A DNA stretch of 55,690 nt. It comes from an uncultured Candidatus Saccharibacteria bacterium. GTDB lineage: Bacteria > Patescibacteriota > Saccharimonadia > Saccharimonadales > CAZNVG01. Shown here piece after piece: positions 10,625 to 29,953 of this stretch. The position numbers and the translations under genes are program-made. How positions within the stretch are numbered: the stretch's first letter is position 1; every line of letters begins with the position of its first letter. Location: contig CAZNVG010000005.1 of assembly GCA_964576475.1 (NCBI GenBank), positions 1-55,690 of the forward strand, given 5' to 3'. The notes beneath the pieces were generated by a model. It made no database searches. It was not told where the DNA came from and worked only from the letters and a program-made list of their open reading frames with translations.

Positions 10625-11845
10625 CTATTCTCTCCTAAGGGCGTCGATTGGGTTGATCCTTTGTGCGCGCCGGGCGGGGAAGTAAACTACGGCTAGACCG
10701 ACAACGATCATAAATAGAATAAGTACAACCGCCAGCCAGAATGGCATAGAGAATACGTTGAACATCTCAGTAGAGCGATCGGCAGCGTTTTGGTTGAGCA
10801 ACTTGTTCACGATAGTGGCTCCGAGTAGCGACAGAAGCAGGCCACAAATAGCGCCAACTACCGATAGCATAACGGCCTCAAACATAAACAGCCGACGCAT
10901 ATCTTTTGGTCGACCCCCCATGGTTATCATGAGTCCGATTTCCTTTGTGCGCTCCAAAAGAGAGATGGTAAGTGTGTTAAACATACCTAGTATAGCTACG
11001 ATCATACCAATGCCACCGAAGCTTGCGAGAATAATATTGAAGAATTTAAACAGCTGATTTATCTGATCAAGCGTGTCTATTGGCGAGTTGGTTTGGAAGC
11101 CGCTCCCTTCAATCTGCTTACGTAGTGACGTGACGTTTGCGAGGTCATCGCTGACGACTTTCATCTGCTTGTACGTAGGAACGCCCGCAACGTCAAATAC
11201 CGCACTCGATACGAATATCTCACTGTTATTGCCCGAGTCTACAACACCGATTATTTTGAAGACATCACGGAGTTCTGACTTCTCTAAATTAGCGCCAATT
11301 AGCGGAACTACTACTTTAAGATCTTGACCAACAGCTTTCTTTTGGTCGGCAAGGCCGAGGTTTTTAAGTGCTGACTTGCTGACAACTACCGATTTAGGGT
11401 CTTCGTCCTTCTTGAGCAGTCGACCTTCGATAAGATCTAGTTGTGTCAGTTCTTGAAACGTATAATCCCAGCCGTAGATGACGCTGTCTACTTCGCCACC
11501 TTGCGCAGAGATGCTCGTAGGGAATGAGTATTCTAGTCCGGTTCTAGATACGTGTGGATAGGTTTTGATTTTGTTAACCGCAGCAGCATCGAGCTTTATG
11601 ATGCTAGAGTTGGGGCTTGAGACATCGAGTGCTTTTAGTGATTTGTCGCCAATAACTTGGTTTGTGACGACATTCTGTAAGCCAAGGCCAAATGACACTA
11701 AGAATGCAATTGAGCCAATGCCGATCACAACACCAAACATGGTGAGAAAAGAGCGGAGCTTTCGGCTGACGATATTTCGCCATGCCATATAAAGCAAAGT
11801 GCTAAGTGGAATGTGTGCTTTCTTTGGGCCGGCGTCTTCGATCAT
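10625..11845 (-). CDS. MacB/FtsX-family ABC transporter permease
   Basis: RSFLTMFGVVIGIGSI, large extracytoplasmic domain, MFNTLTISLLERTKEIGLM..MG, YFPARRAQRINPIDALRRE. Confidence 0.93.
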   Translation of the reverse strand: MIEDAGPKKAHIPLSTLLYMAWRNIVSRKLRSFLTMFGVVIGIGSIAFLVSFGLGLQNVVTNQVIGDKSLKALDVSSPNSSIIKLDAAAVNKIKTYPHVSRTGLEYSFPTSISAQGGEVDSVIYGWDYTFQELTQLDLIEGRLLKKDEDPKSVVVSKSALKNLGLADQKKAVGQDLKVVVPLIGANLEKSELRDVFKIIGVVDSGNNSEIFVSSAVFDVAGVPTYKQMKVVSDDLANVTSLRKQIEGSGFQTNSPIDTLDQINQLFKFFNIILASFGGIGMIVAILGMFNTLTISLLERTKEIGLMITMGGRPKDMRRLFMFEAVMLSVVGAICGLLLSLLGATIVNKLLNQNAADRSTEMFNVFSMPFWLAVVLILFMIVVGLAVVYFPARRAQRINPIDALRRE

Positions 11846-12615
11846 TTTTGTTTTACCTTTGATAGTCTTATGATTCTTTGCTTCATCTCGCGCATTAGTC
11901 GGTCGGTCGTTTGCAGGGCGTCCTTATTTTCCAGTAGGGTACCTTGCCCGTCTTGGATATGAATAAGGAAATCTCCCAGCGGTAAATATTCAATGTTGTG
12001 TGTCACTAATATTATGGTGCGGTTAAGGTCGCGGTTATAACTTTCCAGCAACGCCATAATCATGTCGCCATTTTTACTATCGAGGTTTCCAGTTGGCTCA
12101 TCGGCGATTATGTACATTGGGTTATGAACAATTGCTCTCGCCATTGCAACACGTTGTTGTTCTCCGCCAGACAATACGAGTTGGTTTTTCTTAGCATATG
12201 GAGCCATGTCGACTCGCTGCAATGCGTCCATGGCTTGCTTGGCGGCTTGCTTGCGAGAATAGCCGAGGAAGTGCAGGGGGACTGCGACGTTTTCGAGTAC
12301 GCTAAGACTGCTCACCCAGTAATTCTGCTGGTAAACGATACCGATACGATTTGCGCGAAAATGTGCCAACTTCTCGGGACTCAGGGTGTATATATCGTCT
12401 CCCTCGAAATAAACGTCACCTGTTGAAGGCGACTGTATGCCGCTCAGGATATTAAGAAGCGTGGATTTACCGGAGCCAGATGGTCCGTAGATGATATTGA
12501 AAGAACTACTATGGATGTTGAAACTTATCGGTTTCAAAACTTGCAGAGTCTCTTCACCGACCTTAAATGATTGGGTGATATTGGTCGCTTTTATGAGGAT
12601 GTTTTTGTCGTCCAT
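11842..12615 (-). CDS. LolD/MacB-type ABC transporter ATP-binding protein
   Basis: GPSGSGKST, LSGGEQQRVAMARA, IIADEPTGNLD, VTHN. ATGA overlap with the permease. Confidence 0.95.
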   Translation of the reverse strand: MDDKNILIKATNITQSFKVGEETLQVLKPISFNIHSSSFNIIYGPSGSGKSTLLNILSGIQSPSTGDVYFEGDDIYTLSPEKLAHFRANRIGIVYQQNYWVSSLSVLENVAVPLHFLGYSRKQAAKQAMDALQRVDMAPYAKKNQLVLSGGEQQRVAMARAIVHNPMYIIADEPTGNLDSKNGDMIMALLESYNRDLNRTIILVTHNIEYLPLGDFLIHIQDGQGTLLENKDALQTTDRLMREMKQRIIRLSKVKQK

Positions 12616-12618
12616 AGC

Positions 12619-15600
12619 TTAGAAACCAAATACCTTTCTGAGTGTATTTAGCACTATATTGAGGACACTGTCGGACGCACGACCAATGATAGAAGGCTGG
12701 CTCTCGCCTTGGCCGGCATTGCCTGAGCGGTCTTTAGAAATTGGTTTTATGGTATAGACTTTACTAGTTGGCAGATCCGAAATGATCACAATATGGTCAG
12801 TTGTTAGGGCTGCGTCTTCGGCTGTACGACTATTGAATTCAGTCGCGTTTGATCCTTCAGCGAAGGCCACCTGGCTCGTTGATGGTTCATCGGTCTTCCA
12901 GGAGACGACAATCTGTCCTCGTGCCTCAGCTCCCGATCCTCGTACTGTCGGCTCTATCGTTATCGCAGTAACTTTTGGAGGACGTGTATCGAGTGCTGTC
13001 TTGAAAGATTGGCGATCTGAAGCTGCAAGGTTCCCGTCGGCATCACGTCCTTGCGCTAAGAGGAAATACTCACTGTTATCCTCCAGACCCTTGATGATCA
13101 TCTCGTGCGAGGTCTTAAGTTCGTTCAAGCTTACGTCGATTCCATTTGAACCAGATTTACCATAGGTGACAATGCTGTTCGTTGGAATGTTGGTTGACCA
13201 TGTGATTTGCTGTGTGCTTGTTGGTTCGCCAGCAACGGGCTGGAATCTAAGGTTGGCAATGCGCGGACGTTGCGGCGTGGTGAGTGAAAAGATACTGCTT
13301 TGGTATTCTCCGCCCTCAGAATCAAACATGATAATCTTGTAGAAGTATTTTGTTCCGTCATCAAGGCCGTCGAGTGATGTGCTGTAAGTCGACTCGCTCA
13401 TGGAAGTATTGATCGTCTTTACACCACCAAATGAGTCAGACTTACCATATATAAAGTTAACTTTGACAGCATCTTTGACGGTGAACTGAATTGTCGCACC
13501 GCTTAGATTTACCTTCAGCGATTGAACTTCTTTCAGCACAGGAGCGGGTGCTGTCGTGAAAGTGTATTCTTGGCTTGTTCCCGTATTACCGTCCTCGTCA
13601 GTCCAACGTGCTTTGAAGTAATAGGTTGTACCTGCTGCGAGGTTGTCGAGCTCAAGTTTGTGGGCACTCACCTGTGAGCTATTTCCGATTTCTGATGCAC
13701 TATACTCGCCGCTTGTTGTACCTATCTGGATTTTACTGTCTGAAGCGCGGTCGGTGTTCCAGGCGATCGTTGCGCGTTTTGTAGTTATTTCACTCACGAC
13801 TGCGTCGGATGTTTGAGTGGCAGGTGCAGTGAATTTACCTGTAGGGGTTTCTGATACGACAGTACTCTCTGCGCCGCAGTTGTTTGCGCTATCACAGGCT
13901 TTGACTTTGTAGAAATATTCCTGCTGGCTCAGTCCAGTGTCGACATACGAGGCACTAGTGCTCGTTCCGATTTGTGTGAAGTTACTGTTGTCGGTCGAAC
14001 GCATAACTCGGTATTGAGCAATGCCAGCGCCTAGTGATGAAGGCTGGTCCCAAGTGATTGCAAGTCGCCAGTTACTATTTGCTTTGATCGAGACATCGAC
14101 GACATCAGCATTTGTTGGAATTCCTGGCGCAGACGTATTTGCCGTAAAGGTGACCGATGCGAGACTTGAGTAGTTGATTGCACCGAAGTCATCCTTACCA
14201 ACTACGTAGAATGTGTTGTCGCCAGGCTGTGTTGCATAAGCACCTGGTCCGATCGATGTTTGACCCTGTGACGTGTAGTTACAACTATTTACCGTTGGCA
14301 GGGTGTTCACGGTGTAGCAGTAGATCAGTTTGTCGGCATTGCCTGTAGTGGTATTGAACGTTGACGGCGCATCCCAATCAAATGAGAATTCATTAGTGGT
14401 GTTGGTGCTCGGATCGGCAGTTAGGTTTTGTGGCGGGGTAGGCGCACCGCTTGTATTGATCTTTAGGGCGGCAGTGACGTAGTTGGTTGTTACGTTGCCG
14501 GCTTCGTCCCACGTGCGGAAGTAGATCGTATTGATGCCGTCGCTAAGATTGTCGTAGTCTGTAGGATCAACAGTGTCGTAGCTGCCATCGTTATTCAGTA
14601 GATCAGAAGTATTTCCGCTGCCGTTATGGCTGTCGCCATACCATGTGCCGCTTGCACCTATACGATACTGCAGGCCGATAACTCCTGAGTTATTATCTGA
14701 CGCTGCTTGACCGCCACTCGTTGGCCATGTAAGTGTGGCAGCCTTAGAGTTTAAGAATCCGGAAGGAGCGGAGATAAACCCTGGGTTTGATGGCGCAGTG
14801 TTATCAAATCTGAACTGGAATTGCTCGGCAGTAGCGAAGAGGTTTCCCGCGTTGTCGATTGCTTTGATGCGCAGATAATAGGGGTCGCTTGAGCTAGACA
14901 GAGCGGTTCCGAGTAGACCCGCCGTTGCAAGGTCGAGATTAGTCGAGCTTACCGCGAACGGGCAATTGCCACCCGTATTGGCTGTGCCGGTACCAAGCAT
15001 GCCTTTAGTCGTGGCAGGATCGGCACTGGCGGTTTGTCCGAGGTAGAGACAATACCCGAGCACTCCCGCACCGCCGTCAGTAGCGGCATCCCATGAGAAG
15101 TAAGGCGACGCACCGTTTGTCCAGTCGTTGCTACTCAAGGTTGAGCCAGCGTTTGCCTTGAGGGCCGTAATGTTTGTTGCGTTAGTATCTGGGCCGTTGA
15201 CGTCAGATGTTGCAGACAGTGTCACGGAATCTAGTTGTACACGTTGCGTGCCATCGCCCGTCAAGACTGCCTGCCATTTAATGCCATTAAATGTAACGGG
15301 GAAGGTGGCGATGTTTGTATTGATTGTGGCTATCGTGTTCGTGTCGGACGTGGAGTTGGAAGCGCCCCAGGCGCTGCCGGTCCAATACTTCCATGTAGCA
15401 CCGGCGTCATCGCTGAGGCGGTATTTAATTGTTCCACCGTTTGCGGTTTCGCTAGCAGCTAGTCCGTCCCAATGATCCACTCCTGTCGTACGAACCGCGC
15501 TATTCAGTACTATCGACTGGGCAGTATTGGCATAAGGCTTCGTTGTGAAGCTAGACCGCGCAGAGTTACTGAGGCGTATTTCATCAAGCGATCCAGCAAA

Positions 15601-18600
15601 GAAACCTTGGCTCTCACCGGCGTTGTTTGAGCCATAACCAGAACCTATTAAGAGTGGGATGTTTGTGTCGGTTGTGTTTGAGCTTCCTCCAGATGCTTCT
15701 TGGGTGCCATCTATATACAGCTTTGACACTCCACTACCTGAGCTTGCTGCAAAGTGGTGCCATCCGTTATCAAAGCTCGTTGTAGTCGACTCGAGGTAGG
15801 TGTTGTCACCCATTGACCAAACTGAAGCGTCAAAGTCGACCGTGGTGCCTGTTCCAGCATACAATTTGCCCTTAAAAGGAGTGAGTGTGGAAACTCCTTC
15901 TATAGTATTTGCTGCCCAAGCACCATTTAGCCCATCGCCAGCTACTTGCGACCAGCTCGTTCCGTCATAACGCCATACGTCGCCGCTACCAGCGCTAGTG
16001 ATTCCCGTACCTACATAAAGTAGGCCATTATAGACCGCCATTGAACTTATTCGAGAATAGGTGCCATCCGCCCAGCTTCCCCCTGCTGACGCTCCGCCAA
16101 CCTTAGACCACGTACTGCCGTTCCACTTCCACACGGCGCTGTTTGTTGTATTAAGTTCCGCTACCCCTGCATATAAGTTACCATTGTACGAAGCGAGCGC
16201 TCCTACGGCATCTGATACAGATGCGTCCCAGCCACCATTTAAATTAGTCCCACCACCAATCTGTGTCCAGGTGCTGCCGTTCCAGCACCAGACCCCGCTA
16301 AAGCCAGGAGTAGATACAAGCTCAACACCGGCACATATTTGATTATTAAACACTGTCAATGCAGGTACATTTCGAATAGTAGTCGACCACCCATTATTTA
16401 GGCCATCGCCTCCAATCTGTGTCCAGGTACTCCCAGTGAGACGCCACAAGTCTCCAGCATGCAAGCTCGTGCGACCTGTGCCGACATATAAGCTGTCACC
16501 GAGAACCGCCATACTGCTTACCGTGTCATTTCCCGGCCAGCTGCCGTTCAGTCCATCACCTGCTTCCTTCGTCCAACTCGATCCATTCCAGCTCCACAGT
16601 TCAGCATCCAGGGCGTTCCAACCAAGTCCTACATATAGCTTCCCTTTATAAGAGATCATCGAATCAACGGTTTCATAAGTATTTGCTGCCCAGCTACCGT
16701 TTAGGCCTCCGCCTCCAATTCGGGTGGCAGTTGCACCGTTGTATTCATACACTTCAACCGCAGAAGCTACCGTGCCGACACCAAAATATAGTTTGCTATT
16801 GTGTACCGCGCTACTGCCCACGGAACCTATTCGAGCCCCACCCCAACCGCCATTGAGAAACTTTCCACCTATCTGTGTCCAGTTGCCAGTTCCCGACCAT
16901 TCGTAGAAAAAAGAGCCGATATTTGTCGACCAAGCACCTGAGTAAACTTTTGAGTTAGCTACAACAACGGGGCTTGCAATAGAGGAAGACCAAGACCCGT
17001 TAACTGAGCCTCCAGCCACCTGTGTCCACGTAGAGCCGTTCCAGCGCCACAGACCGGCGCCTGAGTTATATAATCCGGCATACAAATATGTTCCGTCCCA
17101 TACCATGGTAGCTATTTCATTTGCCTGGCCACCACCACCCCAACTTCCATTTAGACTAGATCCACCTATCTGTGTCCACGTAGAGCCGTTCCAACGATAA
17201 ATCAAACCATCACCACTGCCAGACCCCATACCGGCATACAAATATGTTCCGTCCCATACCATTGATCGAACGTATTCAAATGTCGTAGTCCAGCTCCCAC
17301 TCAAACCGTCGCCACCTATTTGAGACCAGGTGGTGCCGTTGAACCTCCAGACCTCGGCTTCTGTTGCGGTGTCGCCAAGGCCTGCATACAGGTAGGTACC
17401 GTCACTTGCGAGTGAACGAACAGACTCATATCCTGTATTCCAACTACTGTTCACTGCCGTACCGCCAACTTGCGTCCAGGAAGACCCTCCGTTATATTTC
17501 CATACTAGACCGTCGTTGCCGGTTATGCCGGTACCGATATACAGGGAGCCGCTATGTACAACCATGCTCTGTATAGACTCGATAGTTGATGATGGGCCGT
17601 TGTTGTCGCCACCGATTTTTGACCAACTACTACAGCTATCAGCAAGATTGCACGTCCATATTTCGCCATCTCCTGCAGTAGTTCCAAGTCCGGCATAGAG
17701 CGCGGTACCGTTCACTGCAAGCGTTGTAACTTCTTCGTACGTTTGGTCTGCCCAGCTCCCGCTGACGCCGTCGCCTCCTATTTGACTCCATGCTGTGCCG
17801 TTCCATTTCCATACCTCGGCATCGCCCACCGCCTGACCCAGCCCCGTATAAATATCGCTTCCATATGATGTTGCTGCGGTTGTAGCGTAGTGGCCGTGCG
17901 TCCAGCTCCCGTTCAGACCGTTTCCGAGACGTCGAGTCCAGCTATTGCCTGCACTTGAATTAGTTGCTTCGTACGTTAGTTTTCCGCTGGATCTATCTAG
18001 GCCGACTTTGTAGTTGCCCTTATCAAGAATTGTCATGTTCTGACCTGAACTTGAGTTGAAAGTGGCGGTAGGTTTAAACCAGCCCTCGAGCGAGTGTTGG
18101 CCTGTGAAAGAGAGGCTGCTAGAGTCTGGGACGCTAATCTGCTGAGATGTTCCATCTAAAGTAGCTGCGTTATTCATGTTGCCAGCACCCCACGTTGGTG
18201 ACGTGTTTGCCGTAGCGGTGTTATTGTTGCTCGAACTATCTGTAATTGAGGTGCCGCTCGACTCATTCATATGGAAAAGCGCGGCTGTGTCTGCGTCATT
18301 CGTGTATTCCTGAGCCTTCAAGCGGGCAGATGTGCCACTCGTCTCTATGCCGCTGTCCAGCGTGAAATCGCTCGGTGTGCCGAAGTCCCAGTTATTTGAG
18401 AGGTCGGCTGCAAAGACGACGCTAACAGAGTTGAAAACGATCAGACCAACCAAGAATAAATGCGCACTAAGTGCAGCGACGTGAACATGCTTGTGAAACC
18501 GCCATGTGTGCCATCTGCTGTAGTGCTGGCTCTTTTGCATGAGCGCTTCGTGAGGGCGAACCGCAATATGATAATGAGTTGTTTTAGCGACGCGTTTACT

Positions 18601-18717
18601 GAGGTGAGCGGTCTTTTTGGCAGCGCGAATTCCATGACGAGCAGTATGCTTTGCCGCCTTGCGTGCGATGGTACCGCTGTTTCGTGCTAGTTCACGAACA
18701 GGTTTTGTTTTCCTCAC
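12619..18717 (-). CDS. Giant surface protein A (2032 aa): LamG domain with 14 inserted WxxIGG repeats, then FN3/Ig-like repeats
   Basis: Long basic/His-rich N-terminus plus TM. LamG halves (LFHMNESSG..SLEGWFKP / WHHFA..KLYIDG..GSLDEIRLSN) flank ~50-aa WTQIGG repeats. FN3-like modules follow (YYFKARWTDEDGN, YFYKI). C-terminal amphipathic helix. Confidence 0.85.
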   Translation of the reverse strand: MRKTKPVRELARNSGTIARKAAKHTARHGIRAAKKTAHLSKRVAKTTHYHIAVRPHEALMQKSQHYSRWHTWRFHKHVHVAALSAHLFLVGLIVFNSVSVVFAADLSNNWDFGTPSDFTLDSGIETSGTSARLKAQEYTNDADTAALFHMNESSGTSITDSSSNNNTATANTSPTWGAGNMNNAATLDGTSQQISVPDSSSLSFTGQHSLEGWFKPTATFNSSSGQNMTILDKGNYKVGLDRSSGKLTYEATNSSAGNSWTRRLGNGLNGSWTHGHYATTAATSYGSDIYTGLGQAVGDAEVWKWNGTAWSQIGGDGVSGSWADQTYEEVTTLAVNGTALYAGLGTTAGDGEIWTCNLADSCSSWSKIGGDNNGPSSTIESIQSMVVHSGSLYIGTGITGNDGLVWKYNGGSSWTQVGGTAVNSSWNTGYESVRSLASDGTYLYAGLGDTATEAEVWRFNGTTWSQIGGDGLSGSWTTTFEYVRSMVWDGTYLYAGMGSGSGDGLIYRWNGSTWTQIGGSSLNGSWGGGGQANEIATMVWDGTYLYAGLYNSGAGLWRWNGSTWTQVAGGSVNGSWSSSIASPVVVANSKVYSGAWSTNIGSFFYEWSGTGNWTQIGGKFLNGGWGGARIGSVGSSAVHNSKLYFGVGTVASAVEVYEYNGATATRIGGGGLNGSWAANTYETVDSMISYKGKLYVGLGWNALDAELWSWNGSSWTKEAGDGLNGSWPGNDTVSSMAVLGDSLYVGTGRTSLHAGDLWRLTGSTWTQIGGDGLNNGWSTTIRNVPALTVFNNQICAGVELVSTPGFSGVWCWNGSTWTQIGGGTNLNGGWDASVSDAVGALASYNGNLYAGVAELNTTNSAVWKWNGSTWSKVGGASAGGSWADGTYSRISSMAVYNGLLYVGTGITSAGSGDVWRYDGTSWSQVAGDGLNGAWAANTIEGVSTLTPFKGKLYAGTGTTVDFDASVWSMGDNTYLESTTTSFDNGWHHFAASSGSGVSKLYIDGTQEASGGSSNTTDTNIPLLIGSGYGSNNAGESQGFFAGSLDEIRLSNSARSSFTTKPYANTAQSIVLNSAVRTTGVDHWDGLAASETANGGTIKYRLSDDAGATWKYWTGSAWGASNSTSDTNTIATINTNIATFPVTFNGIKWQAVLTGDGTQRVQLDSVTLSATSDVNGPDTNATNITALKANAGSTLSSNDWTNGASPYFSWDAATDGGAGVLGYCLYLGQTASADPATTKGMLGTGTANTGGNCPFAVSSTNLDLATAGLLGTALSSSSDPYYLRIKAIDNAGNLFATAEQFQFRFDNTAPSNPGFISAPSGFLNSKAATLTWPTSGGQAASDNNSGVIGLQYRIGASGTWYGDSHNGSGNTSDLLNNDGSYDTVDPTDYDNLSDGINTIYFRTWDEAGNVTTNYVTAALKINTSGAPTPPQNLTADPSTNTTNEFSFDWDAPSTFNTTTGNADKLIYCYTVNTLPTVNSCNYTSQGQTSIGPGAYATQPGDNTFYVVGKDDFGAINYSSLASVTFTANTSAPGIPTNADVVDVSIKANSNWRLAITWDQPSSLGAGIAQYRVMRSTDNSNFTQIGTSTSASYVDTGLSQQEYFYKVKACDSANNCGAESTVVSETPTGKFTAPATQTSDAVVSEITTKRATIAWNTDRASDSKIQIGTTSGEYSASEIGNSSQVSAHKLELDNLAAGTTYYFKARWTDEDGNTGTSQEYTFTTAPAPVLKEVQSLKVNLSGATIQFTVKDAVKVNFIYGKSDSFGGVKTINTSMSESTYSTSLDGLDDGTKYFYKIIMFDSEGGEYQSSIFSLTTPQRPRIANLRFQPVAGEPTSTQQITWSTNIPTNSIVTYGKSGSNGIDVSLNELKTSHEMIIKGLEDNSEYFLLAQGRDADGNLAASDRQSFKTALDTRPPKVTAITIEPTVRGSGAEARGQIVVSWKTDEPSTSQVAFAEGSNATEFNSRTAEDAALTTDHIVIISDLPTSKVYTIKPISKDRSGNAGQGESQPSIIGRASDSVLNIVLNTLRKVFGF

Positions 18718-18818
18718 TATGTAGTTTCCTCGAATATTTCTCTAGTAAACCTCAAGATTAGTATAGCAAAAATAAGCATAACCAGTACAGAGAATAAGCA
18801 CTATATTATGTGTATGAA

Positions 18819-20818: not shown

Positions 20819-23800
20819 TAGTTTCCGATCCCGAATATTTTTTGTAGAGCACTATAAATAATGCTAAATACATTTTCCGAGCCTCTTCCGATTATAGCAG
20901 TTATGCTTTCCGACTCACTGCTATTTCCACTCCTATCCCCAGAAACTGCTCGTATTTGGTAAATACTAGATGTCGGTATATCCGACACAACAACAGTATG
21001 CTCGAGCGATAGCCGAGCATCCTCTGCTGTTCTGTTGGTCAAATCGCCACCTTCACCTTGTCCAAATGCTACCTGAGAAGTTGCTGGTTCGTCTGTCTTC
21101 CATGACACAATGATCTGCCCACGTGCTTGTCCACCATTGCCTCGTACACTTGTCTCGATGCTGACGTCGCTAATCTTTGGTGGTCGTGTATCCAGTGCCG
21201 TATGGAATGTCTGTGTATCTGACGTAGCAGTGTTACCAGCACTATCTCGAGATGTAGCCACAAGGGTATAGTCGGTGTCATCTTCTAGTCCCCGAATAGT
21301 CAGGGTGTGTTCGGTGGTGAGGGTGGAGCTGAGTAATTCTGTTGATTTTCCTCCCACTGGTCCATAGGCTATTGCGCTCGTAGAAGCTACGTTTGTATTC
21401 CAGCTCACCTGCAAAGTACTACTCGGTTCTCCTTCAATAGGCTGGAAGCGGAGATTATTAATGCGTGGGCGAGCAAGAGTTGTGAATGTATATGTGTTGC
21501 CAGGGTACTCGTTGCCGTCCGAATCTACGCCATTAATCCTAAAGACATACTTTGTGCCGTCCGATAACTCGCTGAGCGGTATTGAGTAGGTCGATTCTCG
21601 ACTCGCTGTATTTATGGATTTTGAGCCACCGAAGTTAGTGTCGCGACCAAAGTACACGTTCACCTTGCTGGCGTCCTTCGAGCGGAAGTTGATGCTTGCT
21701 GAAGTGATAGAAATGTCAGTAGGCTGTACTTCGCTAATGCTAGGCGGTGGGGCGGTGCGTAGGGTGCGCTCGCCAGATTGGCCAGTGTTTCCGTCTGTGT
21801 CTGTCCATTTTGTGACGAAGTAGTAGGTAGTGTCAGGTTGAAGATTTGACAATGTGACAGCGTGGTTTGAGACCTGAGAGGAGTTGCCGACTTCTTCAGA
21901 GAAGTATTGTCCTGGGCTTGTGCCGTAGGCGACTTTTGAATCGCTTTCACGATCTGTAAACCAGTAGACTGTAGCATTTTTAGTGCCAATGTCCTTAACT
22001 TTAGGCTGGTCAGTGTCTGCCGTTAATTTAGCTGGTTCCGTGAAGCGGCCAGTTGGTCTCATCTCTACGGTGTTGCTCGGTGCGCTACAACTGTTGGCGT
22101 TATCACAAGCCTTAACTCTGTAATAGTAGAGAACCTGATCGAGTCCCGAGTCGATGAAGCTGGTGTTGCTCGCTGAGGTACTTCCTACTTCAGTAAACGT
22201 ACTATTGTCAGTTGATCGGTATATCTTGTAGGAGTCGATGCCGCTACCTGGTAGCGACGGTGCAGTCCAGCTCATTGCAAGCTTCCAGCTGCTCGTCGCC
22301 CGAGTAGACACATCGGAGATATCGAGATCCTGCGGGACACCTGGCGCCGATGTGTTCGTTGTGAATGTGATCGATGTGCTTTGTGAACCATCGAAGTTGC
22401 CAGTGATGTCCTTGGTTGCAATGTAGAGTGTGTTTAGTCCTTGTTGCGTGGCATACGCGCCAGCTGCCAACTGGTAGATTCCTTTGCCGGTCCAGTTACA
22501 GTTACTCCCGTTTGAGGCGATAGTGACGTTTACGGTCCAACAATATTCAATGTCGTTTACTGAGCCGAAACGGGTAGTTGGTGGATCCCAAGTAAATGAG
22601 AAGGAATTTTCATTGTTGGATGTAGGTGTGACGTCAAGATTCTCTGGAGGTCCAGTTGCGGCCTGGGTTATGATAACGATTCCTTCAGCACCACCTCCTG
22701 TAGTCACATTACCAGCATTATCAACCCCAATAATTTTGACCATGTTCGCGAAGGCTACTTGATCATCTAGTCTGTCGGCGTCAGCGATACTGGTCGTAAT
22801 TTCTCCGGCCGCAAAGGGAAATACGTCGGTTGGGTCGTTAGCCCGGCCGCTCGTGTGTAACGCACCATAGAAGTTCTGGTCGCTATTTGGGTCACAGCCG
22901 CTAAATCCAAGGAGAGCATTGGATACGCAGTACTTTAGCCCTGCAGCGCCAGAGTAGTTGTCGAAGAATTGTGCGCCTGATATCGTAAGCCAACTACCAG
23001 TGAAAATCTTAGAGTTTGTTGCTAAAGGAAGGCTGAACACTGTCCCTAGTTGAGGGGGTTCATTGTCGTATTTGAAACTGGCCACTGCACCATCACCCAG
23101 ATTTCCGCTCGCATCTATTGCCTTAATGATTACGAAATACTCGTTACCGTTCTGCAGTGAACCATTAACGATTGCAGCAACATCGAGGTCCTGATCGGTC
23201 TGTGCATAGTGACACGCTCCTTGAGTATTGAGGTTGCTCTGATACGAAATAACTCCGGATGTCGTCGATAGATCAGGGTTGCTGTCGGTTCCAACGTATA
23301 AACAGTAACCAGCGATACCGGATTCTCCGTTATCTGTAGCTGCATCCCACGATACTATTGGGTAGGCGTTCGTAAAGCCCCCATCGCTTATAAATTGGCC
23401 ACTGAGTCCGTTTTTCTCCATGACGATATTAGTCGGTGCGTTCGGTGCTTGAGTGTCTACAATATAATTGAGTGAAATAGATTGTAGCTTGATTTCGGTT
23501 GCATCGTCAGCGCTGAGCATTACCATGTATTGGACGTAGCGTCTGCTGTTGTATAGGCAGCTATTATCAGAAAGTACCGATGTGCCAGAAGGTATGTTTG
23601 AGCAGAAATAGTATCCGCTCGCATTGATCATGCCGGCGTCATCGGCGGTACGATAGAGTACGACACTGTCGCCTGTGCCACTGATGGTGTAGTTAGTAAC
23701 GCCGTATAGCGCAGGACCGCCCGTATCAATAACTCTTGACGTTAAATATCCAGATCGTCCACCGACATGCTCAACTAGGCCGTACGCGGCAAAGTTTACG

Positions 23801-24963
23801 TTTGTGGTTGTGACAGTCATGTTTCCGACATAGAGAGTGCCGTTTGCGCTACCGTTCCATGCAGCGGCGTACGCCTTAAAGTCTTCCGTATTTGCATTAG
23901 TGGCGGGGTAGCTTGCGACTTGGCTGAAGTTTTTGCCCTCGTCGGTACTGTAATAGAAATCATGATTTCCGTTACTTCGTGCCAATACGCGCATAGTGTA
24001 GGTTGTGCCAATCTGAAATGTATTCACCGATGCAGGTGTTGAATGGGTGTCTTGGTATGTTGATGCGTCGATATAACTAGAACAATCACTAGCATTTCCG
24101 CCGCTGTTTATCTCATAGAACTTGTTGTTGGTTGTCGCCAATACGCCAGTTGACCATGAGAACTTATTGCTACATTCATAGCCTTCCCAGCGAGCGTCGA
24201 ACTGGTAGACCCTATCAACGGTTCTATCGAAGGTGGCCGTGGTGTATATCTCGTCAGCGTTATTACTTGTCTCAGGATCAAGAGCGATGAAGCCATTATT
24301 GAACGTGTAGCTGGGTGCCGTGGCCGATAGGTCGGCAGTAGACTCATTATCAAAGTTATCGGCGAACGGCACCGCAGAGCGGCTTGATAGGCTTGAGGCG
24401 GCTGGGTTGCCGAAATACATTGTGGCTGTGTACGCCCCGGCGGTCGTAACGTCCTCTAGGGTCAGCCAGACGCGTGCATGGTCTGAATCAGTTTTATCGA
24501 GCAAGTAAAAGGGGAGTTCAGTTCCATTATTCACAATAAAGCGAAGGTCAGAGAAGTCGGATTTCATTTCCGGCCGATAATCTATATGCAGTAAAACAGA
24601 TGGGTTAGGAACTACTTCGCCTACTGCCAAGTGGACTTCTTGTCGCCTCGTCCAGTCGGTCGTGCAGTTTGCGGTGTTACACCAGTTAGAGATTGGTGTG
24701 TTTCCTAGAACGGCTTCGCCCGAGCTGGTATCTATGTTCTCTGAAGATGCGTATTGATCATTAGCAGTTCCAGTGCCCCCCGACCAATCGTTCTGCGTAA
24801 AGGTGGATGCAAGCGCCTTGTTTCCCGGTGTAGCGAACACAAGCACCAAACAGAGGGTTATTGTAAACAGGCTACTAAATCCAAGAAAGGAGCGGCTTTG
24901 ACGTGCGTCTGAACGAATACGTCGCGCTCGTTTGAGAATGGTGTCTTTTTGGATTTTTTTCAT
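20818..24963 (-). CDS. Giant surface protein B (1381 aa): DUF2341-like domain plus FN3/Ig-like repeats
   Basis: Signal/TM, FTQNDWSGG, WTRRQEV..DFSDLRF..LPFYL..VWL..MYFGNP (DUF2341-like), FN3-like modules, tail NVFSIIYSALQKIFGIGN. Confidence 0.85.
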   Translation of the reverse strand: MKKIQKDTILKRARRIRSDARQSRSFLGFSSLFTITLCLVLVFATPGNKALASTFTQNDWSGGTGTANDQYASSENIDTSSGEAVLGNTPISNWCNTANCTTDWTRRQEVHLAVGEVVPNPSVLLHIDYRPEMKSDFSDLRFIVNNGTELPFYLLDKTDSDHARVWLTLEDVTTAGAYTATMYFGNPAASSLSSRSAVPFADNFDNESTADLSATAPSYTFNNGFIALDPETSNNADEIYTTATFDRTVDRVYQFDARWEGYECSNKFSWSTGVLATTNNKFYEINSGGNASDCSSYIDASTYQDTHSTPASVNTFQIGTTYTMRVLARSNGNHDFYYSTDEGKNFSQVASYPATNANTEDFKAYAAAWNGSANGTLYVGNMTVTTTNVNFAAYGLVEHVGGRSGYLTSRVIDTGGPALYGVTNYTISGTGDSVVLYRTADDAGMINASGYYFCSNIPSGTSVLSDNSCLYNSRRYVQYMVMLSADDATEIKLQSISLNYIVDTQAPNAPTNIVMEKNGLSGQFISDGGFTNAYPIVSWDAATDNGESGIAGYCLYVGTDSNPDLSTTSGVISYQSNLNTQGACHYAQTDQDLDVAAIVNGSLQNGNEYFVIIKAIDASGNLGDGAVASFKYDNEPPQLGTVFSLPLATNSKIFTGSWLTISGAQFFDNYSGAAGLKYCVSNALLGFSGCDPNSDQNFYGALHTSGRANDPTDVFPFAAGEITTSIADADRLDDQVAFANMVKIIGVDNAGNVTTGGGAEGIVIITQAATGPPENLDVTPTSNNENSFSFTWDPPTTRFGSVNDIEYCWTVNVTIASNGSNCNWTGKGIYQLAAGAYATQQGLNTLYIATKDITGNFDGSQSTSITFTTNTSAPGVPQDLDISDVSTRATSSWKLAMSWTAPSLPGSGIDSYKIYRSTDNSTFTEVGSTSASNTSFIDSGLDQVLYYYRVKACDNANSCSAPSNTVEMRPTGRFTEPAKLTADTDQPKVKDIGTKNATVYWFTDRESDSKVAYGTSPGQYFSEEVGNSSQVSNHAVTLSNLQPDTTYYFVTKWTDTDGNTGQSGERTLRTAPPPSISEVQPTDISITSASINFRSKDASKVNVYFGRDTNFGGSKSINTASRESTYSIPLSELSDGTKYVFRINGVDSDGNEYPGNTYTFTTLARPRINNLRFQPIEGEPSSTLQVSWNTNVASTSAIAYGPVGGKSTELLSSTLTTEHTLTIRGLEDDTDYTLVATSRDSAGNTATSDTQTFHTALDTRPPKISDVSIETSVRGNGGQARGQIIVSWKTDEPATSQVAFGQGEGGDLTNRTAEDARLSLEHTVVVSDIPTSSIYQIRAVSGDRSGNSSESESITAIIGRGSENVFSIIYSALQKIFGIGN
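20921..21331. repeat. 411-bp near-identical repeat (3' end of giant gene B)
   Basis: Matches 25068-25478 base for base apart from one synonymous difference (21292 C vs 25439 A). Confidence 0.95.
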
Positions 24964-24964
24964 G

Positions 24965-27900
24965 TTAGTTACCTATTCCAAATATTTTTTGTAATGTGGT
25001 GAATATGATGGTGAATACGTTCTCGGATGCCCTACCAATGATGGCGGTTTGTGGATCTGAGAGTGCACTATTTCCACTCCTATCCCCAGAAACTGCTCGT
25101 ATTTGGTAAATACTAGATGTCGGTATATCCGACACAACAACAGTATGCTCGAGCGATAGCCGAGCATCCTCTGCTGTTCTGTTGGTCAAATCGCCACCTT
25201 CACCTTGTCCAAATGCTACCTGAGAAGTTGCTGGTTCGTCTGTCTTCCATGACACAATGATCTGCCCACGTGCTTGTCCACCATTGCCTCGTACACTTGT
25301 CTCGATGCTGACGTCGCTAATCTTTGGTGGTCGTGTATCCAGTGCCGTATGGAATGTCTGTGTATCTGACGTAGCAGTGTTACCAGCACTATCTCGAGAT
25401 GTAGCCACAAGGGTATAGTCGGTGTCATCTTCTAGTCCACGAATAGTCAGGGTGTGTTCGGTGGTGAGGGTGGAGCTGGTTTCTGCTAACTCCTTTCCGT
25501 TGAGCGCAGTATATGTAGCCGTTGAGGTGGTTGGTACGTTAGTCGTCCAGGTGACTTGTTTAGTGCTGCTTGGCTCACCTTCAACTGTGGAGATTCGTAA
25601 ATTGCTGATGCGGGGGCGAGCTGGTGTAGTGAATGAGTAGATGTCGCCCTGATACTCGTTTCCTTCAGGGTCAAGTCCATTCAGCTTGTAGAAGTACTTG
25701 CTTCCATCGTCTAGCTCGCTAAGTCGCATGCTGTAGGAAGATAGCTCGCTGGATGTGTCTATTTCTTTAACTGCACCGAAGGCTTCTGACTTCCCGTAAT
25801 AGAGCTTTACTTTGCTGGCATTGAGCGAAGTCAGGTTAATAACCGCCCCTGACACAGAAACTTCCGAAGCACTTACTTCGCTGAATGTTGGCGCGGGCAA
25901 TGTAACGAAACTATGTTCCTGCGATGTGCCGGTGTTGCCGTCAGAATCTGTCCAGTGCGCAACGTAATAATATCGAGTGCCAGGCTGGAGGTTGGTAAGA
26001 TTCACCGAATGATTGGACGATTGGATTGAATTACCGATTTCAGCAGGGAAGTAGCTTCCAGGTGTTGTTCCGATAGAGACTTTCGAGTCACTTTCTCGAT
26101 CGGTGAACCAAAACAGTGTTGCTTTCCTGGTGGTGATGTCTTTTTCCCGAGGCTGGTCAGTGTCTGCCGTTAATTTAGCCGGTTCCGTGAAGCGGCCGGT
26201 TGGTCGACGACTAGCGGAAGTCGATGGCACGCTGCAATTACCGGCATTGTCGCAGGCTTTAATTTTGTAGTAATACAGCACTTGGTTTAAGCCAGAGTCA
26301 ACGAAGCTAGTATTCGTTGACGACGTTGAACCTACCTCGTCATACGTAGCGTCGTCAGTAGAACGTAGAATTCTGTACGACGCCACCCCAGAACCTTCCT
26401 GCGAAGGTGGACTCCAAGAGGATGCTAGCTTCCAAGTGCTCGTAGCTCTAATTGAGACATCAGATAGCTCAAGGTTTTGAGGTACGCCTGGAGCGGTTGT
26501 CGTGGCGGTGAAGGTTATGCTGGCGACTTTCGTATTATCGAAGTTGCCTGTGATGTCCTTAGTGGCTATATAAAAGGTGTTGACTCCTTGTTGAGTCGCA
26601 TATGGGCCCGCAGCAAGCTGTGTAATACCCGCGCCAGTTAGATTGCAGTTGCTGCCATCCGCCGCAATAGTGACATTTACCGTCCAGCAATAGTTTGTTT
26701 GGCTCGACGAGCCGTATAGCGTTGTCGGTATGTCCCATGTGAATGAGAATGAGTTCTCGGTATTAGACGACGGGGTAACTGAGAGATTGTTTGGTGCATC
26801 ACTTGCGGTGTGCGTGATAAGGAATATTCCCATGTTGTACGCACCGTTTACGTTCCCTGCATTATCCAAGATGATCATTGTGATAGCGTTTACGCCCGCC
26901 ACAGAGTCATCAAGTCTGTCGAAATCGGCAGGTACCGTAGTGAGGCTACCTGCGCTCACAGGTATGACATCAGATACGTCCCGAGGATTGCCGCTTGTAT
27001 GGTTAGCGCCGTACCAGTTCTGGCTAGATGCATCACATCCACTAAATCCTGTAATTGCACTTGTGACACAGTACTTATACCCCGCGATTCCTGACCCGTT
27101 ATCCTGGAAAGAAGCTTGTGATAACCACGTCAAAGTTATGGTTTTAGAATTCACAGCTGAAGGCAGGTTGTATAGCGTTCCTGCTTGAGGTAGATCATTA
27201 TCATAGGAGAAACTTGATGTTGTAGGTGTGCTCAGATTGCCGAAATTGTCGAGCGCCTGAAGTATAACGTAGTAGGTAGATCCTGTGCTGAATGAAGAGT
27301 TGAGCTGGTTAGCAATTTCTAAGTAGGTGCCGGTAATTGCGTACTGGCACGCACCATTCGTGTTTATCTCGCTGGTTCCGCCAATCATGCCAGCTGTGGA
27401 CGAGAGATCAGGGTTGCTGTCTGTACCAACATATACACAATAGCCGGCGGTCCCAGACTCAGCATCAACTACGGAGTCCCACGAGAAGTACGGAATTGTT
27501 CTTGCCCAACCGCCATCATTGATTATTTCTCCACCGTCGCTGTTACGCATGACCAAGTTTTGCGGAGAGGTGGGCGGTTCTTCGTCAACCAGATATTCAA
27601 TCGACACTGCAGAGACATGGAAATCGTTGCTGGAATTTGATGACATTTGCAACAAATACTGTACGTATCGAGCGCCATTCTCGCCACCGCATCTACTGGT
27701 GCTTAAAGCTTGCCCGCTACTGATAAGTCCACAATATCTGTATTCTCCAGTTGCAGCTTCGGTCGTTCCGGTTCTAGCAAATAAGCCGACATTACCAGTG
27801 CCTGAAGTGTCTATAGTAACGTTTCCGAACATAGTTCCTGTCGTTCCGAGGTCATACACGGGAGACTCGATCTGGCCAGTATAGCCACCTTGGAATTCTT

Positions 27901-29953
27901 CAATTGAAAATGCAGTGTTGTTTACGCGTGCGACTGAGTCGTAACTTATTATGCTCCTCACGGTCAGGAAGCCTCCCCAGGCTCGAAGTCTTGCGAGCAC
28001 ATCTCCCGTCTCTGTAGTGTCCTCTACGTCAACTTCCTCGTAACTTCGGCCAGAGTCGGTACTGATGTAATAGTCACTTCCCCCGTCAACTTTTGCAACT
28101 TGCTTAATGCGAACAAAGCTGCCGAATGGCAGTTTCTTGGGGTTGTTAACCACTGAGCTTGTGTTAGCAGGGTAATGATCGAGGTAGCTTGCCGTGTAGT
28201 ACGGCACGGAATTATCGCACTGCCCCGGTTTCGTAAAGTACAGAGCCTCGGAGTAGCTGACGTCAGCGTCAATCTCAAAAAAGCCCGGCGTATCACCACA
28301 GCTGTAATTGTCGTTAGCCACCGATACATCGTATTCAATAGCACGGGGTTTTGACCGATCCCATGTCGCACTATTTGTGAGCCAGCCGTTTGAGTGGTTA
28401 CGTAGTTCCACAAACCCGTTGCTATCAACAGTGTAATCCCATCGGCTACTCCAGCCGTCACCCAAAGTTGGTTGTGCGTATTTCGTGATGGTGCTGTTTG
28501 CAAAATCTGAGACATAGATATTATTGTCTGGACCAATATCAAGTGTCGCTGCGTTGCTATTCCATTTAGACAGAAAGACACCAGCACTGGTGAAAACCTG
28601 CACTCGTCCGTTGCCTCCGTCGCTGACGAATATTTTTCCTGTTGAATCGACTGCAATAGCACCAGGATGATCAAACTGACCATTTCCAGTGCCGTATGAG
28701 CCAAGTTGGTGGAATGGAATATCTCCAGGATTCATAGTCAGGTCGCCACCGATGATGACTATACGGTTATTACCGTAGTCATTTATACCTACCTGATATC
28801 CGCCATCCTTGGGGATACATGTAGCCATGCGCGGATCGTCAAACTTGCCGTAGTCAGTACCATATTCGCCTGCCGAAGCTATAAAAAATCCACCAGTACT
28901 CCACCACTGGATGCGATTATTTCCATTGTCCACAATATAGAGACTGTTAGAATCGCATACTGCAATGCCAGTAGGATTAATCATCTCGCCGTCACCGGTG
29001 CCCGAACTACCAAAACCAAACTGGTATGAGCCATCACTTCCGGAGTACACCTTTACGAAATTTCCCTGGTCAATCACGTAGAGGTTACCATTTCCGGGGT
29101 GTATAGATATTTGTGAAGGGTCGTTGAGCTCGCCCGCTCCTGTGCCGGCTTCACCGATGAGATCGACGAAGTCGCCGCTGCTGTCATATTTTACGACCCT
29201 TGAATTACCAGAATCAGCCACATATACGTTTCCGCTTGAATCAACCGTCACACCTTTAGGATTTTGTAGATTATTGTTACCAGAACCAGCACCGCCCCAA
29301 CTATCCAGCGTGGCAGTAGTTGAGGTGTTGGTTGGAAAATCACTCTTGAGATTGAGAATAGAATCAGTCGCAGTCGAGTTTGCCCCAGCATTGCCGTAAT
29401 ACATGAAGATTGTCTGGCCAGTTTGTATTGGGACCTGGACCAGCACACTGGCCCATTGACCATCGACTTTGTCTATGAGGTAGTACGGAAGGTCTGTATC
29501 GTTTGTATCAGAGGTAAACCTGAGGTCATCGAAGCTTGATCTCATGGCTGATTTATACTGAACAGTTAGCTGTACGTTTACGTTTGTTTCGGCAGCAGGA
29601 ACGATATCTAATAAAACAGATTGACGCCGTGTCCATGACGTGTCGCAAGCACTCGTGTTACACCAAGCAATAGCACCACCCGAGTCATCGAGCGTTAAGT
29701 CGGTGTCTGCAACAACGCCGGTCTTAGAGGCATATTGGTTTTGTGTATTTGTGCCAACACCCCCAGACCAATCTGTCTGAGATAGCTGTGAGTAGGCACC
29801 TAGTTTTGTGGCAGGCGCAAGCGGAATAAGGAGCACGAACGCAAATGATGCGAGAAAGACAAACGACCATAATCGACGAGAACGCCAAAGAGACGCGATA
29901 CCGCGTCCTCTCATTTCAGACCGATCTGTTTTTGACCTCAGTTTCATGTTCAT
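24965..29953 (-). CDS. Giant surface protein C (1662 aa): DUF2341-like domain, NHL repeats, FN3/Ig-like repeats
   Basis: SQTDWSGG, DUF2341-like block, NHL repeats (LQNPKGVTVDSSGNVYVADSGNSRV; FDHPGAIAVDSTGKIFVSDGGNGRVQVF), FN3-like modules, tail NVFTIIFTTLQKIFGIGN. Confidence 0.88.
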   Translation of the reverse strand: MNMKLRSKTDRSEMRGRGIASLWRSRRLWSFVFLASFAFVLLIPLAPATKLGAYSQLSQTDWSGGVGTNTQNQYASKTGVVADTDLTLDDSGGAIAWCNTSACDTSWTRRQSVLLDIVPAAETNVNVQLTVQYKSAMRSSFDDLRFTSDTNDTDLPYYLIDKVDGQWASVLVQVPIQTGQTIFMYYGNAGANSTATDSILNLKSDFPTNTSTTATLDSWGGAGSGNNNLQNPKGVTVDSSGNVYVADSGNSRVVKYDSSGDFVDLIGEAGTGAGELNDPSQISIHPGNGNLYVIDQGNFVKVYSGSDGSYQFGFGSSGTGDGEMINPTGIAVCDSNSLYIVDNGNNRIQWWSTGGFFIASAGEYGTDYGKFDDPRMATCIPKDGGYQVGINDYGNNRIVIIGGDLTMNPGDIPFHQLGSYGTGNGQFDHPGAIAVDSTGKIFVSDGGNGRVQVFTSAGVFLSKWNSNAATLDIGPDNNIYVSDFANSTITKYAQPTLGDGWSSRWDYTVDSNGFVELRNHSNGWLTNSATWDRSKPRAIEYDVSVANDNYSCGDTPGFFEIDADVSYSEALYFTKPGQCDNSVPYYTASYLDHYPANTSSVVNNPKKLPFGSFVRIKQVAKVDGGSDYYISTDSGRSYEEVDVEDTTETGDVLARLRAWGGFLTVRSIISYDSVARVNNTAFSIEEFQGGYTGQIESPVYDLGTTGTMFGNVTIDTSGTGNVGLFARTGTTEAATGEYRYCGLISSGQALSTSRCGGENGARYVQYLLQMSSNSSNDFHVSAVSIEYLVDEEPPTSPQNLVMRNSDGGEIINDGGWARTIPYFSWDSVVDAESGTAGYCVYVGTDSNPDLSSTAGMIGGTSEINTNGACQYAITGTYLEIANQLNSSFSTGSTYYVILQALDNFGNLSTPTTSSFSYDNDLPQAGTLYNLPSAVNSKTITLTWLSQASFQDNGSGIAGYKYCVTSAITGFSGCDASSQNWYGANHTSGNPRDVSDVIPVSAGSLTTVPADFDRLDDSVAGVNAITMIILDNAGNVNGAYNMGIFLITHTASDAPNNLSVTPSSNTENSFSFTWDIPTTLYGSSSQTNYCWTVNVTIAADGSNCNLTGAGITQLAAGPYATQQGVNTFYIATKDITGNFDNTKVASITFTATTTAPGVPQNLELSDVSIRATSTWKLASSWSPPSQEGSGVASYRILRSTDDATYDEVGSTSSTNTSFVDSGLNQVLYYYKIKACDNAGNCSVPSTSASRRPTGRFTEPAKLTADTDQPREKDITTRKATLFWFTDRESDSKVSIGTTPGSYFPAEIGNSIQSSNHSVNLTNLQPGTRYYYVAHWTDSDGNTGTSQEHSFVTLPAPTFSEVSASEVSVSGAVINLTSLNASKVKLYYGKSEAFGAVKEIDTSSELSSYSMRLSELDDGSKYFYKLNGLDPEGNEYQGDIYSFTTPARPRISNLRISTVEGEPSSTKQVTWTTNVPTTSTATYTALNGKELAETSSTLTTEHTLTIRGLEDDTDYTLVATSRDSAGNTATSDTQTFHTALDTRPPKISDVSIETSVRGNGGQARGQIIVSWKTDEPATSQVAFGQGEGGDLTNRTAEDARLSLEHTVVVSDIPTSSIYQIRAVSGDRSGNSALSDPQTAIIGRASENVFTIIFTTLQKIFGIGN
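25068..25478. repeat. 411-bp near-identical repeat (3' end of giant gene C)
   Basis: Matches 20921-21331 with one mismatch. Confidence 0.95.

Follow-up and report, generated by a model that had tools for sequence, protein, structure and literature searches.

Type VII ATP-binding cassette (ABC) transporters carry nothing through the membrane; they drive extracytoplasmic partners or expel substrates from the outer leaflet or the periplasm (Greene et al. 2018, PMC5985334). In the examples given there, FtsEX acts on hydrolase activators, LolCDE on lipoproteins, and MacB on STII and dispersin, both exported by Sec. FtsEX performs no transport, but its extracytoplasmic domain binds a helical element of a secreted partner (EnvC, PcsB, CwlO or RipC), and the complex works by ATP-powered mechanotransmission (PMC5985334). 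MacB-type pumps pick up STII and the 10-kDa dispersin on the extracytoplasmic side, after export by Sec, and bring them to the cell surface (PMC5985334), and LolCDE extracts the membrane-embedded handle of a Sec-exported protein from the outer leaflet. Here we describe a locus of an uncultured Candidatus Saccharibacteria bacterium (assembly of 1.47 Mb, 46% GC) in which two ATPase-permease pairs of this class stand beside the genes of three giant proteins, A, B and C. The window is the whole 55,690-nt stretch of contig CAZNVG010000005.1 that was analysed; the block 10625-29953, minus strand throughout, holds in order C, B, ATPase 1, permease 1, a gap, A, ATPase 2 and permease 2. The genetic coupling of the giants and the ABC pairs is borne out across the class and the phylum, and we propose, with a probability of roughly 55%, that a dedicated type VII ABC complex acts outside the membrane on a C-terminal FN3-helix module of the Sec-exported giants.

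Each of the described systems resembles the locus in part. As in FtsEX, the ATPase and a permease with four transmembrane (TM) helices are encoded separately. However, the permeases here carry full-length MacB_PCD and score only 32-38 bits against the NCBIfam FtsX models (cut-offs 225-255), short of the equivalog level, and FtsEX membership was rejected on this ground. Moreover, the partner is a 1400-2000-aa FN3 fibre with an amphipathic C-terminal helix rather than a coiled-coil hydrolase activator, and the system, present in about one in five Patescibacteria genomes, is not universal. LolCDE shares the MacB fold and a LolD-like ATPase, and LolE and LolC are among the top fold matches; here, by contrast, there is no outer membrane, TolC or lipobox, and instead of N-terminal acyl chains the handle would be an amphipathic helix at the C-terminus. 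Membership in LolCDE was rejected on the TIGR02212 (LolC/LolE) scores, 53-77 bits against a cut-off of 362, together with the missing lipobox of the giants and the missing outer-membrane efflux protein (OEP) of the genome. MacB is the best full-length match in both sequence and fold, yet the MacAB-TolC and Aat systems differ in having MacA/HlyD and TolC components that are lacking here; the nucleotide-binding domain (NBD) is a separate gene (fused in some relatives), and the partners, fibres of 150-220 kDa, are far too large for the MacB periplasmic cavity. MacAB-TolC membership was thus rejected, adaptor and duct being absent from the genome and the permeases scoring 87-103 bits against a cut-off of 966 (NF007826). 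YtrEF of Bacillus subtilis, a monoderm, is likewise a MacB-type pair that has no adaptor. Cell-envelope phenotypes are linked to it, but no giant-protein partner has been described for it.

Our reading of the literature on surface proteins of Saccharibacteria and Patescibacteria and on MacB/FtsX found no description of a giant-ABC pairing. FN3/VCBS adhesins are mentioned by Wang et al. 2023 (PMC10633639); SEML1_0890 from that study was considered as a counterpart and rejected, being a 195-aa protein with no MacB-type neighbour. We regard the system as a variation on an established theme, in which both the class of partner coupled to a type VII ABC and the C-terminal signal are new.

Giant proteins and ABC pairs are genetically coupled

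Scanning GTDB species representatives with peptides from the giant C-terminus only gave 74 loci, and the relatives that carry them are nearly all labelled Candidatus Saccharibacteria or Saccharimonadales. Every locus with at least ~1 kb of downstream sequence holds the giant C-terminus, the ATPase and the permease on one strand; the ATPase starts within ~160 nt of the giant C-terminus, and exceptions to the order occur only at contig edges. When giants stand in tandem, a single ABC pair follows both, as it follows C and B here, and the order of the window, a B module and then an A module, recurs in three relatives (loci L066, L007 and L016). In 301 Saccharimonadia genomes, sampled evenly from the class, the full C-terminal module was found in ~50. 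A search of these 301 genomes with permease 2 separated full-length matches of at least 296 bits (40-59% identity) from generic MacB-type proteins, which reach 145 bits at most. Apart from three that begin within 1 kb of a contig start, each strong full-length match has a giant C-terminus 1.7-2.1 kb upstream of it on its own strand. Within Saccharimonadia, neither the giant nor the permease subfamily occurs alone.

The coupling extends to the way the two partners diverge. Because the window holds two paralogous modules, which are ancient copies lying side by side, co-divergence can be assessed with little influence of species phylogeny. Behind A-type giants there is always an ABC pair of the ATPase 2/permease 2 type and behind B/C-type giants one of the ATPase 1/permease 1 type, and this matching holds in the genomes that possess both (L016, L066, L007 and the window). 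Pairwise distances among giant C-termini correlate with those among permeases (Spearman 0.80; Mantel r 0.86, p 0.001) as well as distances among ATPases do (Spearman 0.83). In the permease tree, 38 members form the A-type clade and 11 the B-type clade, and a single change on the giant-protein tree separates the two. Positions that would determine specificity between A and B types number three in the permease and two in the last 300 aa of the giant, and do not localise an interface.

Across the phylum, the C-terminal module could be aligned through its tail in 84 out of 401 sampled genomes and 79 out of 320 genera, in open reading frames (ORFs) of up to 3740 aa. Both giant and permease are present in 73 genomes, the giant only in 3, the permease only in 15, and neither in 309, which corresponds to an odds ratio of ~500 (Fisher's p ~1e-60, without phylogenetic correction). 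Out of 124 tail-covering matches, 72 have a permease within 4.5 kb downstream, three belong to tandem arrays and 49 fall outside this rule; adjacency is thus kept in at least 58% of the cases, while gene order varies. The 16 regions inspected show the orders ATPase-permease-giant and ATPase-permease-ORF-giant, divergent arrangements and a fused 989-aa ATPase-permease, together with some tandem giants that are truly unlinked. Elsewhere, up to five giants occur with one to three ABC pairs. Adjacency under differing gene orders, together with the ATPase-permease fusions, argues against simple operon inheritance. These results sustain the association that an initial annotation, made from the letters of the window, had suggested: synteny is two-way in Saccharimonadia, the co-phylogeny of giants and permeases agrees with it, and giants commonly occurring without the ABC pair, which would have told against it, were not seen in that class. 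At least 426 clusters of homologues bear only generic database names (LamG-like, FN3, discoidin or hypothetical).

In some relatives, the ABC pair is kept beside a giant gene of which only a 72-aa open frame is left or which a single TAA interrupts (G038:C10:37795-38010; G077:C1:69198-70100; G219:C3:18487-19389; G054:C1:727566-728465). Such genes are possible pseudogenes, cases of phase variation or assembly errors.

The C-terminal module and its MacB-type neighbours

We use "giant-protein/ABC module" as a working definition from this analysis: a Sec-type giant ending in two FN3 domains and the pattern ...[VL]xx[IL][IV]xxxLxxxFG-COOH, adjoined by an ATPase and a MacB-type permease of the matching subfamily. 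A, B and C all show these features. Each giant has exactly one strong N-terminal hydrophobic segment, with a Kyte-Doolittle 19-residue mean hydropathy (KD19) of 2.1-2.3, and an AxA-like site after it (VFA-AD, ALA-ST and LGA-YS); hydropathy gives no second TM-like segment in any of the three, and a Sec-type segment is also present in 57 out of 67 homologues. No lipobox cysteine follows the segment in the three giants, Pfam finds no RTX repeats in them, and none has LPXTG, despite five sortases elsewhere in the genome. The heads that follow differ among A, B and C (Table 1), and LamG, discoidin, FG-GAP/VCBS and DUF2341 heads are found among the homologues. A-type orthologues keep their head at 37-61% identity over ~1000 aa in ~30 species, and B/C-type heads diverge faster. 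The last 900-950 aa, in contrast, are common to all three giants (Ig/FN3/PAP_N-type domains, 43-56% identity): residues 1097-2032 of A align with 435-1379 of B and 764-1660 of C at 43-45% identity, and B and C are 56% identical over 1168 aa. The common C-terminal scaffold with variable N-terminal heads that the initial annotation described is therefore real, and the motifs it quoted are present in the translations. Large surface proteins have been proposed to serve host contact in the candidate phyla radiation (CPR), i.e. Patescibacteria (PMC13059738, PMC10633639); by analogy, and given their lectin and propeller heads, the giants may be adhesins. The conserved A-type head would fit a structural role in the envelope equally well.

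A recent exchange between B and C affects this scaffold. A 411-nt block differs by at most one mismatch while its flanks are only 55-70% identical, which points to gene conversion; the block is confined to the last FN3 domains and ends ~100 nt before the stop codons, leaving the codons of the tail outside.

The tail is among the best-conserved stretches of the giants, with the consensus AIIGRASDSVLxIIxNTLxKxFG[FLI], and forms the extreme C-terminus in 79 out of 79 homologues. In this genome, a C-terminus of this type is found in 3 out of 3997 ORFs of at least 80 aa, namely the three giants only. The tails are strongly amphipathic: their hydrophobic moment has a median of 0.52, and controls have a median of 0.19 and a 95th percentile of 0.38. 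They are not TM-like, as KD19 is no higher than 1.34 in 67 out of 67. The AlphaFold2 model of the last 240 aa of A (74 sequences; pLDDT 86.7) predicts two confident FN3 domains, for which Foldseek returns tandem FN3 pairs, and a terminal helix at residues 226-238 with pLDDT ~60, a value that suggests that the helix is free rather than packed. Other classes have tail variants such as TITPKATxxAxxLVxxNLxxxFGFL and SVLDIIVNSLQSTIGW.

This arrangement recalls the LPXTG/sortase, PEP-CTERM/exosortase and type IX secretion system C-terminal domain systems, in which a short conserved C-terminal element on varied surface proteins co-occurs with a dedicated machine and variable ligand-binding heads are N-terminal to a conserved anchor module. 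However, LPXTG and a TM segment with a basic tail are both missing from the giants, and neither a sortase nor an exosortase accompanies them; their tail is amphipathic and ends the protein. The partner is instead an ABC ATPase with its permease, a type of complex that has not been described in a sorting role. Membership among sortase-anchored LPXTG proteins was rejected, since the C-termini are IIGRASDSVLNIVLNTLRKVFGF-like and show the low tail hydropathy given above.

In A-type giants, the motif HHHxAxRPHxxLxxxxxWYxxWHxWxxHxxxH stands directly before the hydrophobic segment (window 18409-18576, A residues ~48-103). It follows a Lys/Arg/Ala-rich stretch of 40-60 aa, recurs in orthologues (L007, L066, L008 and others) and is missing from B/C-type giants. 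The region exceeds a plain signal-peptide n-region and is comparable in concept to the extended signal peptides of the YSIRK-G/S or KxYKxGKxW type.

Both ATPases match ABC_tran above the Pfam gathering score, and their best NCBIfam matches are LolD, FtsE and the MacB NBD, LolD-like models ranking top and all lying under the equivalog cut-offs. The catalytic motifs are Walker A GPSGSGKT, signature LSTGQQQR, Walker B ADEPT and H-loop THN in ATPase 1, and GPSGSGKS, LSGGEQQR, ADEPT and THN in ATPase 2. Both permeases match FtsX (PF02687) with 69-71 bits against a cut-off of 25.5 and MacB_PCD (PF12704) with 67-71 bits over profile positions 1-207 of 207. In phmmer, YtrF of B. subtilis (9o9x) is the nearest solved structure to permease 2 by sequence (E 3.9e-25), and MacB 5lil is matched over residues 20-406. 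In the AlphaFold2 model of permease 2 (62 homologues; pLDDT 91.5), four long TM helices accompany an extracytoplasmic domain of mixed alpha/beta structure (residues 66-254); in this superfamily such a domain (MacB_PCD, Porter plus Sabre) lies between TM1 and TM2. The top Foldseek matches of the model are MacB, Spr0695, LolE/LolC and YtrF at TM-scores of ~0.6-0.68 (MacB 5lil, E 5.6e-24, TMq 0.67, and 5nik, 0.68; LolE 9rld, 0.66; YtrF 9o9x, 0.67), and FtsEX-type folds (8tzk, 8i6o) are matched as well. Judged by these profiles, the permeases are type VII ABC (MacB/FtsX) proteins outside every characterised subfamily, because they fall far below the MacB, LolC/LolE and FtsX cut-offs; a grouping with some characterised exporter, which would have spoken against a dedicated system, was not seen. 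The absence of a MacA-type adaptor and of TolC, which the initial annotation reported, extends to the whole genome: neither HlyD_D23 nor OEP (PF02321) was found there, in searches whose positive controls succeeded (in 9 genomes for the adaptor).

Other permeases of this class vary in form. Single MacB-like polypeptides that unite ATPase and permease occur in L058, L059 (665 aa), L074 (783 aa) and L095 (989 aa), and in other classes the permease is enlarged to 520-720 aa, with a bigger extracytoplasmic part. The genome also encodes a third MacB_PCD-type permease (contig C18:1475-3292; loci L001 and L080), its best MacB_PCD match at 127 bits, which is followed within ~750 nt on the same strand by a sortase gene; this pair may be another link between a type VII ABC and the handling of surface proteins.

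Layout of the locus and its surroundings

The gene order and strand given by the initial annotation, C-B-ATPase-permease and then A-ATPase-permease, are confirmed by the ORF coordinates (Table 1), as are its overlapping or 1-3-nt junctions. C and B are separated by a 1-nt spacer, B overlaps ATPase 1 and ATPase 1 overlaps permease 1 by 1 nt each, A and ATPase 2 have a 3-nt spacer, and ATPase 2 and permease 2 overlap by 4 nt; junctions between a 4-nt overlap and a 3-nt spacer imply translational coupling. No further minus-strand ORF of at least 100 aa lies inside the block.

Table 1. Positions of the genes and sequence features of the block within the window
Feature	Coordinates	Strand	Description
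Giant C, 1662 aa	24965..29953	-	N-terminal Sec-type segment, DUF2341, NHL propeller repeats (heads from Pfam), LamG-like region, Ig/FN3 stalk, C-terminal helix
Shared C-terminal scaffold of C, residues 764-1662	24968..27664	-	
Conversion block partner in C, 411 nt	25068..25478	-	flanks 55-70% identical
Tail of C, IIGRASENVFTIIFTTLQKIFGIGN	24968..25042	-	C-terminal tail
Giant B, 1381 aa	20818..24963	-	N-terminal Sec-type segment, DUF2341 head (Pfam), Ig/FN3 stalk, C-terminal helix
Shared C-terminal scaffold of B, residues 435-1381	20821..23661	-	
Conversion block in B, 411 nt	20921..21331	-	at most 1 mismatch to C 25068-25478
Tail of B, IIGRGSENVFSIIYSALQKIFGIGN	20821..20895	-	C-terminal tail
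ABC ATPase 1, 249 aa	20069..20818	-	LolD/FtsE/MacB-NBD class
Permease 1, 416 aa	18819..20069	-	MacB_PCD + FtsX; part of B/C-type module
Intergenic gap, 101 nt	18718..18818	-	extended -10-like TGCTATACT + GAGGA Shine-Dalgarno; candidate promoter of A module
Giant A, 2032 aa, GTG start	12619..18717	-	basic N-terminus, His/Trp-rich pre-TM motif, one hydrophobic segment; LamG + Trp/Gly propeller-repeat head (Pfam), Ig/FN3 stalk, C-terminal helix
Shared C-terminal scaffold of A, residues 1097-2032	12622..15429	-	
Tail of A, IIGRASDSVLNIVLNTLRKVFGF	12622..12690	-	amphipathic helix, not TM-like
ABC ATPase 2, 257 aa	11842..12615	-	intact catalytic motifs
Permease 2, 406 aa	10625..11845	-	MacB_PCD + FtsX; AlphaFold2 model

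The gap upstream of A was said to hold an extended -10 promoter of its own. The element is there (TGCTATACT at 18768..18760, minus strand), and in L066 and L007 the A-type orthologue has a TGnTAnAnT element at the corresponding upstream position; however, a generic sigma-70 promoter scan, in which promoter-like matches did not exceed shuffled expectation, did not flag it, because its -35 is weak. The GTG of A is preceded by GAGGA, and a GTG start is conserved in A-type orthologues. A separate promoter for the A module is plausible from sequence, because the element is kept in L066 and L007.

Directly upstream of C, a 201-aa membrane-protein ORF (30013..30618, minus strand) has homologues in the same position (~30% identity) only in L060, L061 and L063, which are B/C-type loci. 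It was considered as a fourth core component and rejected, being kept in only these three related loci, and is possibly an accessory gene. Further upstream (31199-33257, minus strand) lie genes for a DUF1295 membrane protein (steroid-reductase/ICMT-like), a secreted fasciclin-domain protein and a TetR-family regulator, and a TetR-fasciclin pair is also found downstream of the A-type module in L007. On the other side of the block, tandem Rfam matches to RF03169 (c-di-GMP-II-GAG riboswitch aptamer) at window 8857-8942 and 9223-9308, minus strand, score 40.5 and 43.6 bits, narrowly above the gathering score of 40. The minus-strand ORF downstream of them (about 8663/8614..7898) is without a Pfam match.

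Candidate modes of action and their meaning

We suggest the following course of events. The giants would be exported by Sec through their N-terminal hydrophobic segment, since this segment is the only one of its kind and precedes an AxA-like site. On the outside, a long Ig/FN3 stalk would carry the lectin or propeller head, and the protein would end, according to sequence and the AlphaFold2 model, in two FN3 domains and a free amphipathic helix. The neighbouring ABC complex, predicted to have the MacB fold and no transmembrane channel, adaptor or outer-membrane duct, would recognise this membrane-proximal module at the outer face of the membrane. ATP hydrolysis could then act by mechanotransmission, so that the giant is held and actuated, as FtsEX does with its partners; alternatively, the helix could be pulled out of the outer leaflet and the protein passed outward, as LolCDE does with lipoproteins. 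In either case the net role would be the sorting or anchoring of the giant without polypeptide translocation, one ABC pair serving C and B and the other A. That several giants share an ABC pair leans slightly toward catalytic sorting and is still compatible with anchoring. The initial annotation had left it at each pair exporting, releasing or positioning its cognate giants. The coupling behind that statement is supported. Among these actions, full export is the least probable, given the Sec-type N-termini of the giants and a MacB fold that lacks a transmembrane channel.

Several points weigh against our proposal. Outside Saccharimonadia, ~40% of the tail-bearing giant genes do not adjoin an ABC pair, 15 out of 88 permease-bearing genomes have no detectable giant C-terminus, and the co-occurrence statistic takes no account of phylogeny. 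Direct contact of the tail or the FN3 domains with the permease is something we infer, as is the choice between anchoring and extraction; since the whole 900-aa scaffold is conserved and not the tail alone, the recognised element may lie outside the tail. The His/Trp-rich motif before the hydrophobic segment could be the real handle, or a second one, in the A-type subfamily. As to expression, a few exact 151-nt pieces were found in one RNA-labelled wastewater run, where DNA carry-over is possible, which is too thin a basis for mapping transcript starts.

These points bear on the rival explanations to different degrees. The unlinked giant genes of other classes would suit an indirect link, in which the giants depend on a small or lipid-linked substrate (a cell-wall glycopolymer, a lipid anchor or a modifying group) handled by the ABC pair, or in which the pair protects the cell against a by-product. 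Many type VII ABCs do act on outer-leaflet lipids or small molecules, e.g. HrtBA, BceAB and MacB with macrolides (PMC5985334), and the nearest solved relative, YtrF, belongs to a system tied to cell-wall homeostasis. We nevertheless regard such a link as unlikely: it does not explain why the permease subfamily is almost confined to genomes with tail-bearing giants, or why, within one genome, each paralogous ABC pair has diverged together with its own type of giant, and no glycosyltransferase or lipid-synthesis gene is found among the conserved neighbours. Were there no functional link at all, the ABC pair merely hitch-hiking in the operon, the two-way synteny in ~60 species, the adjacency under at least four gene orders, the genome-level odds ratio and the junctions that imply translational coupling would have to be coincidental; operons can hold unrelated genes, and with nothing more specific in its favour this explanation is scarcely credible.

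The other two alternatives grant a direct interaction and place it elsewhere in the giant or in another mode. The ABC complex might extract or release an N-terminal signal-anchor, as LolCDE does with an N-terminal lipid anchor, leaving the C-terminal helix for oligomerisation or wall binding. The juxtamembrane His/Trp-rich motif and long basic N-terminus of A-type giants, odd for a plain signal peptide, and their conserved GTG would suit this; B/C-type giants, however, lack the motif and yet have their own ABC pair, the C-terminal module is the only element common to all types and classes, and an AxA-like signal-peptidase site follows the hydrophobic segment, which makes such an N-terminal handle quite improbable. 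Slighter still is the chance that the whole giant is translocated through a C-terminal signal in the manner of type I secretion, as in RTX/LapA-type adhesins. Giant adhesin-like proteins with a conserved, uncleaved-looking C-terminus beside an ABC gene do evoke such systems. Yet the permease has the MacB fold, which contains no substrate channel (PMC5985334), rather than that of a type I exporter, and the giants have Sec-type N-terminal segments and no RTX repeats, membrane-fusion protein or TolC; membership in this class was rejected accordingly.

The surface of Patescibacteria is where they meet their hosts, and the module described here is found in about one fifth of the sampled genomes. 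To our knowledge, the genetics of this surface has so far comprised only type IV pili and a few adhesins. If the proposed action of the ABC complex on the C-terminal module is true, type VII mechanotransmission would extend from hydrolase activators, lipoproteins and small toxins to 200-kDa surface fibres, and would offer a concrete handle on the sorting of surface proteins in organisms that have no outer membrane and do not use LPXTG for these giants. More tentatively, and at odds well short of even, the FG-ended helix may be a new sorting signal of Patescibacteria, read by an ABC that serves both as anchor and as ATP-driven actuator of the fibre. Were this so, it would constitute a third route of monoderm attachment beside sortase and lipidation, by which fibres might be extended, retracted or released, and which could be central to how these epibionts grip their hosts and let them go.

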